A DNA stretch of 64,000 nt from IMG/VR virus record IMGVR_UViG_3300020037_002952, positions 49,330 through 113,329 of that record. One strand, given 5' to 3'. Source of the stretch: a virus. Lineage: Duplodnaviria > Caudoviricetes. Made by a program: the position numbers and the translations under genes. Position 1 is the first letter of the stretch. Each line of letters starts with the position of its first letter. The notes below the pieces were generated by a model. The model worked only from the letters and a program-made list of their open reading frames with translations. It ran no database searches and was not told the origin of the DNA. Positions 25,303-57,051 of this stretch are shown in pieces.

Positions 25303-26088
25303 TCATAAAATCATTTCCTTATTTATAGTGAGATCATCAAGCTGATCTATCGTGCATTCTTCTGGTAACTTGTCAGTTCGCCGCATTGGCTTGGTCGGCT
25401 GGTAGACCTTACCACCTTCCATAACATAAAGCAAGGAGATCTTACAAACTTCTCCTGGCTGTAACGTGGGGCCATCTCCGGCCATAGAGGTTACTTTACT
25501 TACTGGCACAAGGACGCCGTTATCGTACATGCCTACAATGAGGTTGTTTATTTCTGTGCCACGTTCCATAACAACGCAGTCAACATCTTTCGTAAACTTG
25601 TATTTCAAGAGACTCCCAGTTTTGCCTGGTTTCCAATGAGCATTGAGTTTTCGGAAGATTACTCCCTCGGCATTATTTTCCTTAAACTTCTCAAAAACTT
25701 CACGCTTATTTTCTTTGTGGAAAGGAACAGCTTGAACATGTTCTGTTCCCCACGTCTTTATGACGTACCATAAAAGCTCTTGACGCATTTCAGTACGAGC
25801 TTTTTTCATCCGTTCGCTGAGAAAATCAAACACATAAAACGTATTACCGATTAACTCTCCATCAAGGATTACATCATTCGTAATGTACCATGGATTCTGT
25901 AAAAACAACGGGACATTACGAGGTTCACCGCTACGATTATAGCCATGTCCAATAGTAGGTCCGCCCTTTTCGCAGCGTACATCAAGAACAAACCTCTCTC
26001 CATCCATCTTCTGTTGCATTCCCCAAGCTTCTGAATCAAGATAGAAATTAGGGCTTGAAATAGTTTTAGGTAGTTGAACAAAGCTCAT
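25303..26088 (-). CDS. Minimal ATP-dependent DNA ligase
   Basis: QQKMDGER (motif I), LDGEL, FYVFD, EGVIFR, LKYK. Confidence 0.85.
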   Translation of the reverse strand: MSFVQLPKTISSPNFYLDSEAWGMQQKMDGERFVLDVRCEKGGPTIGHGYNRSGEPRNVPLFLQNPWYITNDVILDGELIGNTFYVFDFLSERMKKARTEMRQELLWYVIKTWGTEHVQAVPFHKENKREVFEKFKENNAEGVIFRKLNAHWKPGKTGSLLKYKFTKDVDCVVMERGTEINNLIVGMYDNGVLVPVSKVTSMAGDGPTLQPGEVCKISLLYVMEGGKVYQPTKPMRRTDKLPEECTIDQLDDLTINKEMIL

Positions 26089-26610
26089 AGCTGATCTGTA
26101 ATCTCGCGGAAAACTTTATCGTATTCAATTTGATCAAAGTCTTCTGGTTTAATAAGGGCTCCCGGCAGTACATTGAGGTTAAACGATAATGTATCTTGAA
26201 GCTCGTTCAATGTCAAGTTCAAATCCTCTCCGACTTCTAAGCCTAGTTCGTCAAGGGCAGATTGGATTTGTTGTTTGAGTCTTTTCGCTGGGTCTAACGC
26301 ATCCATTAAGCAATCCTCGTTCCCCTGAAAGTTAAATCGTATTCAGCAGCGAACCCTTCGTAAACAGATTCAATTTGTAAATCCTCTGGACTATATTGTT
26401 CTAGCTCAATTTCTTCTAGCTCAAGGTCGGTAGGATCTGGAAGTTCTTCTAGGTCGAAACCTAAACTATAGCTCTGTTTCATCATTAACTATTCCTAACG
26501 TTTGTATATTGTGGGCATGTTCCAGCCACAGATAATCTGCTTCTGTGGAATCTGGAACAACTTCTGCCTCGTCACACATTTCAATATAAAGTTTCCGTAA
26601 AACAGTCGGG

Positions 26611-39307: not shown

Positions 39308-39353
39308 TTTAACTATCCTTTCTTTAGGGTATAGTTAAAATAACGACAGAAAT

Positions 39354-42726: not shown

Positions 42727-42839
42727 CGGGGCGCATAGGATTCGAACCTATGAATAATAGCTGTTGTTATTGTCAGGTAACCGCCAATGACGCATTACGT
42801 CAGAGCGAAAGGACTATTATTCCACCTTAAAGACGCCCC
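42727..42839 (-). ncRNA. tRNA-like ncRNA (113 nt) with acceptor and T arms but no canonical D or anticodon arm
   Basis: GGGGCGT/GCGCCCC acceptor; ATAGG-TTCGAAT-CCTAT T arm; GAATAATAGT/GCTATTATTC 10-bp stem; inner TGACG-TAATG-CGTCA hairpin. Confidence 0.75.
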
Positions 42840-47520: not shown

Positions 47521-47556
47521 AGCGCCCGGTGGGATTCAAACCCACGGCCTGAAAAT
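47521..47556 (-). pseudogene. 3' half of split tRNA-Arg(UCU)
   Basis: AGGCC-GTGGG-TTTGAAT-CCCAC-CGGGCGC; CGGGCGC pairs with GCGTCCG at 48270-48276. Confidence 0.8.
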
Positions 47557-47576
47557 TCTCAGCATTTCTGTCGTTA

Positions 47577-47611
47577 TATCAAGTATGGGAAAGAGACTCC
47601 CATACTTGATA
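47577..47611. promoter_or_regulatory. Perfect 14-bp hairpin directly after the CTGTCGTTA motif
   Basis: TATCAAGTATGGGA-N7-TCCCATACTTGATA. Confidence 0.7.
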
Positions 47612-47613
47612 GG

Positions 47614-47690
47614 TGCGGACGACAGGACTTGAACCTGCATGTGTCCAGTTACCCTTTCAAGTCTTTAGAAGAGACAGGGGATACGTCCGC
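47614..47690 (-). ncRNA. Non-canonical tRNA-like RNA with UCU (Arg) anticodon loop and no D-arm
   Basis: GCGGACG TAT CCCCT GTCT-CTTCTAA-AGAC TTGAA AGGG TAACTGGACACAT GCAGG-TTCAAGT-CCTGT CGTCCGC A. Confidence 0.8.
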
Positions 47691-48242
47691 ATGGAAGCTA
47701 TCTGTTCAAATGAATCGTGTTTAAAGCAATTCAAGGTGTTACGTGGATCTACCGGAAAGTATTGTTCTAAGTCTTGTGCTGCCAAAGTTAACGGTTCTAA
47801 GTACCCCAAAAGACATTCCTTGTATCAGTGTAAGGTTTGTGGGATTAACATCAGAGGAGAACAAAGTAAAACAACTGGAGTATGCACTGCTCATCGCCCT
47901 ACACCTGAAGAGAGAAGGCAAACGAAAATACAAGAATGGATCAATGGGAGTTGGTCCGGGGGCAGTGATCGTAAACTCTCTAACATAATCAGAAATTACT
48001 TACTTGACTTAAGTAATTATTGTTGTCAAGAATGTGGCTTTAACACTCCGCATCCAAGCGACGGTAAGTCTATTTTAGAAATAGATCACATAGATGGCAA
48101 CGGGACGAATCATACCCCAGACAACTTACGTGTTCTCTGTCCAAACTGCCATGCGTTAACCCCTACTTACAGAGCTAGAAATATGGGATTTGGTAGAGCT
48201 TATAAATATATAAGAGTTCCCATAAAGAAGTCTGAAGACTAG
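47691..48242 (+). CDS. HNH homing endonuclease, antisense to the surrounding genes
   Basis: CSNESC..YCSKSC; CQECG...LEIDHIDGNGTNH..NLRVLCPNCH; AGGGGA upstream of ATG 47691. Confidence 0.9.
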   Translation: MEAICSNESCLKQFKVLRGSTGKYCSKSCAAKVNGSKYPKRHSLYQCKVCGINIRGEQSKTTGVCTAHRPTPEERRQTKIQEWINGSWSGGSDRKLSNIIRNYLLDLSNYCCQECGFNTPHPSDGKSILEIDHIDGNGTNHTPDNLRVLCPNCHALTPTYRARNMGFGRAYKYIRVPIKKSED

Positions 48243-48276
48243 AAAACCTTTGCTCTGTTCACTGAGCTACGGACGC
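48240..48276 (-). pseudogene. 5' half of split tRNA-Arg(UCU)
   Basis: GCGTCCG TA GCTC-AGTGAACA-GAGC A AAGGT TT TCT A, then HNH antisense sequence. Confidence 0.8.
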
Positions 48277-49295: not shown

Positions 49296-49644
49296 ACTGT
49301 GCGAAAGAATCCCTAGAATGATAAAGCGTTACTTGCTCGTCATGGATGAACATACTGTCTAGAATTTTATCATCAAGATTCTGGGACCAAACACTATCAT
49401 CGGGGTGGTCATCCAAGGAAGTTATAGTGTCACCATAATAATTAATTGATTCGAGATACTCTTTTACCATATTCATTCTGGACTCAACGGGCAGCGGATT
49501 ATTTGCGGAAGTAGGAAGGGGATTATTTCCAATGACTATTGCAACCTTGTCGCTCTTCCTTGCAACTTCCCGAATAATTGCTTTGTGTCCAGCGTGCAAT
49601 TCTGGCACTTGGAAACGTCCAACAATAACTCCAATTTTAGTCAT
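49264..49644 (-). pseudogene. Truncated NadM-like NMN adenylyltransferase (HxGH nucleotidyltransferase)
   Basis: GVIVGRFQVPELHAGH, NPL..R, DSVWS, SRDSF; ends early with no SxT motif or NUDIX domain. Confidence 0.7.
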
Positions 49645-54918: not shown

Positions 54919-55632
54919 TTAACCTTTCAGGGTTGCTTCAAGTCGAAGATTGTTCTTAAAGATTACATTCAGCATGAACGGCGGGAGAAAGTGATGGAGA
55001 AACTTCAAGGTAGCTACCGTATCATGCTTCAACATTTTGTTCAGTTCTTCACGAATCCGCTCCGAAGAAACAGAATCGCTAAGAAGTGCTCTTTCTGCTT
55101 CAAATGAAGATACTGCTGCAAGAGTTTCAGATTCCATTGTAAACCCACGAACAACACAAAAACGAAATGCCCGCATAACTCGCAGTCCATCCTCATTGAT
55201 TCTATCAAGAGGATTGCCAACAAATCTCAGCGTGCGAGTATGAATATCATCAATCCCATTATGAGGATCAAGCCATTCGCCAGTCTCTGGATCTTTCGCT
55301 ATTGCATTTACCGTAAAATCTCGACGTGCAAGGTCGGTCAAAATGGTTCCAGGCTCAACAAATTCCGGTCTACGACCATCAGAAGTCTCGGAATCACTAC
55401 GGCAGATAACAAAGTCTGCATCTTTCGTTTCTTTGTAAAGAGGATGATCCTTAGGAACTCCCGCTCTTACGGTAAGAAACTCTTCTTTAATTACATGAAG
55501 AACAAACCCTTGTCGAGTAAGTTCTTTGACCATTTCTTCAAATGAGTTTGCCTCAACAGCAAAGTCAACATCTTTCGTGGGGATGCCAAGAATTTCATCT
55601 CGATTACATCCACCAACTCGCCAGAATTTCAT
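54919..55632 (-). CDS. Class II tRNA nucleotidyltransferase (CCA-adding/poly(A) polymerase family)
   Basis: VGGCNRD, KDVDF, DLARRDFTVNA, EDGLRVMRAFRF, ERIREEL. Confidence 0.93.
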   Translation of the reverse strand: MKFWRVGGCNRDEILGIPTKDVDFAVEANSFEEMVKELTRQGFVLHVIKEEFLTVRAGVPKDHPLYKETKDADFVICRSDSETSDGRRPEFVEPGTILTDLARRDFTVNAIAKDPETGEWLDPHNGIDDIHTRTLRFVGNPLDRINEDGLRVMRAFRFCVVRGFTMESETLAAVSSFEAERALLSDSVSSERIREELNKMLKHDTVATLKFLHHFLPPFMLNVIFKNNLRLEATLKG

Positions 55633-56975: not shown

Positions 56976-57051
56976 TAAACCCTCCTAGTATAGTAACTAG
57001 TTAATTTAACGACAGACTTACATATATAACAACTACCCTATTTTACTCTTT

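Follow-up and report, generated by a model that had tools for sequence, protein, structure and literature searches.

The cloverleaf order of transfer RNA (tRNA) is regarded as universal except in animal mitochondria. In the permuted tRNA genes of Cyanidioschyzon merolae, reportedly described by Soma et al. in 2007, the 3′ half is said to come first and the cloverleaf to be restored by a circular intermediate. Free-standing homing endonucleases are encoded in phage tRNA clusters, such as SegB in T4 and F-TflI, F-TflII and F-TflIV in T5. The metazoan mitochondrial D-armless tRNAs (mt-tRNA-Ser(AGY), Ascaris mt-tRNA-Ser(UCU)) and the synthetic D-arm-less mini HisT lack both a D loop and an elbow contact, and their fold is flexible or Y-shaped (PMC7609411, PMC11551756). 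Allo-tRNAs and the (8/4) tRNA-Ser/His keep the cloverleaf order and have altered stem lengths (8/4 or 9/3 for acceptor and T stem; PMC5389517), and according to a paper from 2024 all known bacterial tRNAs are cloverleaves (PMC11551756). Here, a 77 nucleotide (nt) tRNA-like element, designated T1, was analyzed, which is located in a viral DNA stretch of 64,000 nt (positions 49,330 to 113,329 of the 113-kilobase (kb) IMG/VR record IMGVR_UViG_3300020037_002952; hereafter the window). T1 is likely to be an intact tRNA-Arg(UCU) of the phage and to represent a non-cloverleaf class with a rewired core, and it belongs to a large, phage-specific family of this architecture for which no published description was found.

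T1 lies on the minus strand (47690→47614). Its ends form a 7 base pair (bp) acceptor stem in which all seven pairs are Watson-Crick (GCGGACG/CGUCCGC), followed by discriminator A, and it carries a T arm with a 5-bp stem and a 7-nt UUCRANY loop (GCAGG-UUCAAGU-CCUGU). The hairpin GUCU-CUUCUAA-AGAC provides a 7-nt loop with U33, the arginine anticodon UCU and the purine A37. A preliminary description of this DNA had reported the perfect acceptor, the normal T arm, the canonical anticodon loop and the tRNA-like length, and all of these were read off the minus strand. T1 is not a cloverleaf: no D hairpin is found between positions 9 and 26, and the anticodon hairpin is followed on its 3′ side by UGAAA, GGG and the D-loop-like segment UAACUGGACACAU. 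The same description had proposed that a D arm is missing and that an outer stem CCCU/AGGG surrounds the anticodon hairpin. The D hairpin is indeed absent, but a 3-bp D-stem-like helix persists around the anticodon arm, and the core is therefore rewired and not D-armless; this helix corresponds to the proposed outer stem, the register of which had been placed off by one, since covariation in the family gives the pairs C11-G39, C12-G38 and C13-G37.

With canonical tRNA-Arg(UCU) (E. coli argU; RF00005) T1 shares the acceptor and T stem lengths, the UUCRANY loop, the anticodon loop with U33, A37 and UCU, an A20-like base after GG, A73, the length of 77 nt and the placement in phage tRNA arrays. 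Unlike the canonical molecule, its D-stem-like helix encloses the anticodon arm, and its D-loop-like segment occupies the site of the variable loop. As in the D-armless tRNAs and the mini HisT, the D hairpin is missing from its usual place and few nucleotides link the acceptor to the anticodon arm. However, T1 differs from the D-armless tRNAs by its 77-nt body, the 3-bp substitute for the D stem and the equivalents of G18 G19, A14 and R15:Y48, and it occurs in phages of bacteria and not in organelles. Like the allo-tRNAs, T1-type molecules are natural non-standard tRNAs that were obtained by metagenome mining and lie in phage tRNA clusters; in contrast to them, T1 retains the 7/5 stem lengths and alters the order of the core elements. 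The segment order also departs from the textbook in the permuted genes of C. merolae, whereas T1 has its acceptor ends at the termini from the outset, and a cloverleaf would be missing even from the mature RNA.

The close relatives of the phage were uninformative. A megablast of the T1 region against cultured phages gave no match, and in exact-word scans of IMG/VR the inner segment of T1 and the 5′ half of the outer, split tRNA matched nothing, while the T arm plus acceptor matched canonical tRNA-Leu and one tRNA 3′ fragment only. Contigs of two other metagenome samples contain the T1 region with 100% identity over 821 nt and with the same HNH protein, and due to this identity they add no covariation. 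Therefore, the search was moved to loci around homologs of the adjacent HNH gene, which were scanned for a 7-bp acceptor plus T arm uncalled by ARAGORN. Elements of 75-77 nt with the same part order and different helix sequences were found at loci L006, L009, L011, L012, L014, L027, L055 and L078. A degenerate pattern derived from their shared 3′ core was run on IMG/VR and yielded more than 118 stretches with at least 131 elements, at least 106 of them unique and full-length. For the comparative analysis an alignment (A3) of 100 distinct sequences was used, the 77 columns of which correspond to the positions of T1.

All four helices of the family covary. When the helices 1-7/70-76, 11-13/37-39, 15-19/27-31 and 53-57/65-69 were tested on A3, 94.5% of the cells were paired compared with 59.9% in shuffled alignments, and the covariation score was 0.90 compared with 0.22; neither value was reached in any of 500 shuffles. 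Sliding of the 3′ partners by 1-3 columns, as a control, gave 37-48% pairing. The acceptor is 98% paired, with two-sided changes at all seven pairs and 4-6 pair types for each of them (mean column identity 75%). The helix 11-13/37-39, the columns of which were unconstrained by the search pattern, is 99.3% paired with 3-4 pair types per pair; pair 11-39 is CG in 66 sequences, AU in 18, GC in 12 and UA in 4, and pair 12-38 is CG in 60, UA in 33, GC in 5 and UG in 2. The T stem is 99.4% paired, and position 15-31 is U.U in 87% of the members. RNAalifold, which was run independently, returned the same four helices.

This pattern bears on the idea that T1 is a dead, scrambled remnant left by HNH breakage and sloppy repair, for example a tRNA-Leu-like acceptor and T arm combined with a stray hairpin. 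T1 does adjoin an HNH gene within a disrupted tRNA gene, and a canonical tRNA-Leu(UAG) at locus L003 has exactly the same acceptor and T arm as T1. However, T1 has no broken pair, and its layout recurs in at least 100 distinct sequences with several anticodons and compensatory changes in every helix; with the column identity and the number of acceptor pair types given above, the alignment does not consist of near-identical copies. Members also occur in tRNA arrays without an HNH gene and in cultured phages of unrelated hosts, and an origin of T1 as a remnant is extremely improbable. An inverted internal segment was rejected as well, since the D-loop-like motif is in sense orientation.

The covariance model from phage homologs that the preliminary description had called for was built and recognized T1: model R2, made from 108 homologs of loci L089-L188 and containing no sequence of the window, gave 88.3 bits (E 1.1e-22), with 20/20 pairs standard. 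With model R1, T1 scored 90.5 bits, where family members range from 46 to 99 bits and canonical tRNAs from 16 to 28 bits. The hallmarks of the family, namely the helix 11-13/37-39 around the anticodon arm, the linker WGAAA and the sequence UAAYUGGNYACAU that precedes the T arm, are all present in T1, which is the sole family member detected in the 113-kb record. The expectation that standard scanners would miss T1 was borne out. In default mode ARAGORN called only a tRNA-Ile(UAU) and a tRNA-Lys(UUU) in the window, and Rfam at gathering score reported the Lys tRNA alone. T1 had no match to RF00005 at gathering score or at E<=10, and its best permissive Rfam match was tRNA-Sec with 22 bits compared with a cut-off of 47. 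Among 119 family members, 3 are overlapped by ARAGORN calls and 116 are missed. The Rfam tRNA model placed four of eight tested members above its cut-off (30-42 bits, compared with 45-71 bits for neighbouring canonical tRNAs), and Infernal-based tools therefore catch some members weakly. The family has no entry in Rfam 15. Its layout is described neither in a review of non-canonical tRNAs from 2020 (PMC7609411) nor in the allo-tRNA paper (PMC5389517) or PMC11551756, and a full-text literature search, which did not cover subscription journals, found no description of it.

Among the sequences of A3, the anticodon is Ile UAU in 52, Arg UCU in 17, Arg ACG in 10, Ile GAU in 9 and Arg UCG in 6, and CAU, Val UAC and Arg CCU occur twice each. 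U33 is present in 99 and A37 in all 100 members, and so is the GG, the column of which was fixed by the search pattern. Column 47, which follows this GG, differs by anticodon class: all Arg members (35/35) have an A, and the Ile/Met/Val members have a U with one exception (64/65); the search pattern permitted both, and the rule is also kept in divergent members outside the pattern that were found with the model. The discriminator is A in 65/65 Ile/Met/Val members, and A, G or U among the Arg members. Bacterial arginyl-tRNA synthetase (ArgRS) recognizes its tRNA mainly by A20 of the D loop, along with C35, U/G36 and A/G73, and the bacterial Ile determinants listed include A73 and U20 (PMC9976931). 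T1 carries the complete Arg set, with A in column 47, anticodon UCU and discriminator A. Moreover, columns 42 (R15-like) and 52 (Y48-like) are A and U throughout and G and C in Coruscant, L214 and L235, and they thus behave as a 15:48 Levitt pair does. Since position 20 splits by anticodon class and 15:48 covaries, the earlier reading of UAACUGG as D-loop-like now has the backing of two independent signals.

Two further observations concern the 3′ end and the amino acid classes. In 97 of 98 distinct members with a full 3-nt trailer the base after the discriminator is C, the remaining one being cut at 'CC', whereas no more than 29 of the 98 encode CCA completely; C74 therefore looks conserved even without an encoded CCA. 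The amino acids seen (Ile, Val, Met/Ile2 and Arg) all belong to class Ia synthetases, and class II is represented by none of about 130 members; this restriction is suggestive, and it may stem from the way in which the search pattern sampled the family.

These identity signals also bear on the possibility that T1 and its family are tRNA mimics outside translation, which would act as cutting signals for RNase P or RNase Z and so punctuate the transcripts of the phage, or as decoys for tRNA-targeting nucleases or modification enzymes of the host. T1 is located inside a transcription unit, flanked by an antisense gene and a gene downstream, its core is unusual, and its charging is something we infer, all of which would fit a mimic. 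However, a cutting signal requires the acceptor and T arms alone and neither U33 and A37 nor a 7-nt loop limited to sense anticodons, and it would not need the split between A20 and U20 by anticodon (35/35 vs 64/65) or A73 in all Ile/Val/Met members. In addition, the members replace and do not duplicate an isoacceptor in tRNA arrays: 76 of the 119 have a canonical tRNA no more than 300 nt away, which without exception shares their strand and in many cases is separated by a gap of 4-11 nt, and a canonical tRNA of the same anticodon is present at only 4 of the 119 loci. A role of the family as mimics is considered unlikely.

Several points weigh against T1 as a functional tRNA. The discriminator is followed by CCU, and CCA is not encoded. 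Taken alone, T1 has a modest minimum free energy z-score (-2.16), its anticodon stem consists of 4 Watson-Crick pairs and U.U in place of 5 bp, and the D-like helix comprises only 3 bp. No promoter of its own is evident; a scan for promoters and terminators around T1 revealed no terminator and weak sigma-70-like sites. The Shine-Dalgarno sequence AGGGGA of the HNH gene sits within the complement of T1, and part of T1 is therefore under a second constraint. In addition, the columns of GAAA, UAA, GG, ACAU and GUUCRA were fixed by the pattern that gathered most members, and for this reason their invariance is not independent evidence. In favour of T1, AGA is the commonest Arg codon of the phage (35% of its Arg codons), and ARAGORN and the family model revealed no further tRNA-Arg in the 113-kb record, but this record is only about 56% complete and another tRNA-Arg could sit in the missing part.

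The sequence anatomy allows a model of the fold, in which the parts are arranged in the order acceptor, U8, A, strand X (3 nt), 1 nt, anticodon arm, WGAAA and strand Y (3 nt), which pairs with X, followed by the D-loop-like segment U A R Y U G G N Y A C A U, the T arm and the acceptor. The chain would pass from U8 via one A into X, which would head to the anticodon stem as canonical 22-25 do. The X/Y helix would stack on the anticodon stem at the site of the D stem with swapped strands, X corresponding to 22-25 and Y to 10-13. The 5-nt linker with its invariant, G45-like G and three A's would lead to Y, which would return toward the elbow; we infer that in T1 this linker (UGAAA) stands in for positions 44, 45 and 9. 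The segment after Y would provide a U, A14 as partner of U8, R15 pairing with Y48, two pyrimidines, G18 G19, which would meet the T loop at the elbow, and position 20, and the chain would enter the T stem after four or five more bases ending with Y48. Stacking of 4 bp, U.U, one 26/44-like layer, 3 bp and U10.U40 would result in 10 layers, as in the canonical arrangement (5+1+4 = 10). With the named tertiary contacts and the distance from anticodon to elbow keepable, the L shape would in this model be kept by a different path of the chain.

T1 would be co-transcribed with its neighbours on the minus strand and freed by RNase P and 3′ trimming. Its CC would be extended to CCA by the host enzyme or by a phage nucleotidyltransferase encoded at 54919-55632, host ArgRS would charge it via A20, C35, U36 and A73, and it would read AGA. 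A D-arm-less tRNA is accepted by unadapted E. coli HisRS, EF-Tu and ribosome (PMC11551756). The nucleotidyltransferase (minus strand, 237 aa) has a PolyA_pol head (76 bits) and a short RNA-binding piece and is without most of the body and tail of the usual CCA-adding enzymes. In the Streptomyces phages Jay2Jay and Coruscant a gene annotated as 'nucleotidyltransferase' lies immediately upstream of the rewired tRNA-Ile. If the model is true, there is a second topology that leads to the L shape, in which the nucleotides of the tertiary contacts are kept and the chain is threaded otherwise, and the design of orthogonal tRNAs would gain a natural scaffold in this family.

The surroundings of T1 are organized in an unusual manner (Table 1). 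An ARAGORN intron search showed that a 682-nt insert, which comprises T1 and the antisense HNH gene, splits a canonical-type tRNA-Arg(UCU) in the anticodon loop. The outer acceptor halves GCGUCCG/CGGGCGC pair over 7 bp with one G.U, and the outer D loop is without GG. By standard numbering the 5′ half ends with U33 U34 C35 U36 A37, and the outer gene was therefore a tRNA-Arg(UCU); the reading of ARAGORN as a CUA suppressor was rejected, since a single base at position 26 gives UCU. The HNH motif is visible in the translation of 47691-48242, the product of which is a predicted HNH homing endonuclease, and the stop codon TAG of this gene is the complement of C35-U36-A37 of the split tRNA. A GTG at 47613 was rejected as its start codon due to the lack of a ribosome-binding site and to the homologs, which begin at the position of ATG 47691. 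As with SegB of T4 and the F-Tfl enzymes of T5, an endonuclease gene is embedded among tRNA genes here; unlike those cases, the HNH gene and a tRNA gene lie together inside another tRNA gene, and the old anticodon supplies the HNH stop. The two genes flanking the T1 region encode proteins for which no relatives were found by pattern search and no Pfam family was matched.

Table 1. Features of T1 and of the split tRNA locus in window coordinates (column i of alignment A3 corresponds to coordinate 47691 - i).
Feature	Position	Strand	Details and basis
T1, predicted core-rewired tRNA-Arg(UCU)	47614..47690	-	77 nt; 90.5 bits R1, 88.3 bits R2
Acceptor 5′ strand, columns 1-7	47684..47690	-	pairs with 47615-47621; discriminator A at 47614
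U8 A9 U10	47683-47681	-	sequence
CCC, columns 11-13, 5′ strand of D-stem-like helix	47678..47680	-	covariation, RNAalifold
Anticodon arm, columns 15-31, 4 bp + U.U, loop CUUCUAA	47660..47676	-	pairs 16-30 to 19-27 covary
Anticodon UCU	47669-47667	-	sequence
Linker UGAAA, columns 32-36, G33 invariant	47655..47659	-	conservation, partly imposed by the search pattern
GGG, columns 37-39, 3′ strand of D-stem-like helix	47652..47654	-	covariation
UAACUGGACACAU, columns 40-52, D-loop-like (A14, A15, G18 G19, A20) and connector ending with U48	47639..47651	-	column 47 identity, 15:48 covariation
T arm, columns 53-69, GCAGG / UUCAAGU / CCUGU	47622..47638	-	helix 4 99.4% paired
Split tRNA, 5′ half	48240..48276	-	acceptor GCGUCCG, D arm GCUC-AGUGAACA-GAGC, anticodon stem/loop to U34 C35 U36 A37
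Split tRNA, 3′ half	47521..47557	-	A38, AUUUU, variable loop, T arm GUGGG-UUUGAAU-CCCAC, acceptor CGGGCGC, discriminator U
Predicted HNH endonuclease gene, 183 aa	47691..48242	+	antisense to T1 strand; Pfam HNH PF01844, 24.6 bits vs cut-off 21.4
14-bp perfect hairpin	47577..47611	-	between T1 and 3′ half; on the + strand, HNH 5′ leader
Motif TTCTGTCGTTA	47566..47576	+	candidate phage promoter of the HNH gene
CTGTCGTTA copies	39341-39349, 47568-47576, 57007-57015	-, +, -	window scan

The core of the motif upstream of the HNH gene, CTGTCGTTA, occurs in exactly three copies in the window, each upstream of an endonuclease gene. The distance to the endonuclease start is 31-36 nt, and 114 nt for the copy at 47568-47576, because T1 intervenes there. 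The motif is a candidate for a phage-specific promoter or a cassette end.

The nesting raises the possibility that T1 is the processing handle of an intron-like RNA and that the 682-nt insert is excised by self-splicing, or by cleavage at T1 and sealing by an RNA ligase. The outer halves still form the 7-bp acceptor stem, and the same nesting is found at locus L012, where a T1-type gene and an HNH gene lie between perfect 7-bp acceptor halves. There, the region L012:1322-1989 (minus strand) contains a T1-type tRNA-Arg(UCU) at 1396-1472 and an antisense HNH homolog between a 5′ piece that begins with CCCCAAU (1989) and a 3′ piece at 1322-1340 that carries a T arm as well as AUUGGGG; the HNH stop TAG is again at the junction, and the outer gene is not clearly canonical and was called by ARAGORN only at a lowered threshold. 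However, Rfam matched neither a group I nor a group II intron in the window at gathering score or at E<=10, and the antisense HNH gene fills nearly the entire insert, which leaves no room for a ribozyme core. Intron_gpI was also not found at L087, L024 and L028, loci with intron-split tRNA calls of ARAGORN -i. G18 G19 are missing from the outer D loop, 108 of the 119 members are without a nearby HNH gene, and no nesting in a split tRNA was seen among the others examined. With most members un-nested and without HNH, the function of the family is therefore independent of nesting, and an intron-like role of T1 is very unlikely.

The HNH protein has 555 homologs at E<=1e-10, and nearly all of 80 homolog loci have adjacent tRNA genes. 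A T1-type gene abuts a divergent HNH homolog also at L006, L009, L010, L012 and L014. A strict link between the family and the HNH gene was nevertheless rejected, since an HNH homolog lies within 300 nt of only 11 of the 119 members, most of which were gathered via the HNH gene. Because the insert split the canonical gene, T1 is therefore the sole intact AGA reader found in the 113-kb record. The simplest reading is that a mobile unit of T1 and HNH gene inserted in the resident canonical gene and that T1 would now supply the decoding of AGA. A further proposal, which is put forward tentatively and with considerable doubt, is that of a selfish module that breaks and replaces: the HNH endonuclease would target the DNA of canonical tRNA-Arg(UCU), and the cassette would destroy this gene and bring an AGA tRNA with a rewired gene that is no target, so that the phage would be left dependent on the cassette. 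More broadly, core rewiring might then be an escape from nucleases (homing enzymes on DNA, host anticodon nucleases on RNA) in which the fit to class Ia synthetases, EF-Tu and the ribosome is kept. With a tRNA gene disrupted by a nuclease cassette that itself carries an isoacceptor of different build, the local arrangement allows such a selfish-element hypothesis to be tested directly.

In a scan of prokaryotes with one genome per species (185,579 species) only 30 stretches matched the pattern, 29 of them in metagenome-assembled contigs, and the family is therefore essentially viral. Among cultured phages, about 77 records of Streptomyces phages contain an Ile(GAU) member; in Jay2Jay (NC_029098), where it lies at 75237-75313, this member has no annotation, and in EGole it is called tRNA-Leu. 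Salmonella phage Felix O1 (NC_005282, L241) contains an unannotated Arg(UCU) member at 25951-26029 with 60.2 bits, which overlaps by its 3′ third the annotated start of the HNH endonuclease ORF45 (coding sequence 26003-26395); this start is probably mis-set. If the members are tRNAs, standard annotation under-counts the tRNA repertoires of phages, Felix O1 and the Streptomyces phages among them.

Some additional elements were noticed. The canonical tRNA-Leu(UAG) at L003:11497-11579, on an unrelated viral contig, has the acceptor and the whole T arm of T1, with 25 identical 3′ bases, which suggests that genes have exchanged tRNA modules or have converged. Upstream of HNH homologs (L066, L080, L082, L049, L051, L059 and others) ARAGORN called long versions of 'tRNA-Ile(UAU)' (88-95 nt) and 'tRNA-Lys(UUU)' (84 nt), which are unmatched by R1 and R2 and may be another non-standard class or calls with wrong boundaries. 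A 113-nt element with a perfect 7-bp acceptor, a T arm and a long non-tRNA interior is located in the window at 42727-42839 (minus strand), and a 93-nt element with a 7-bp acceptor, a T arm and an unclear core lies at L009:1235-1327 (minus strand), directly downstream of a T1-type gene.
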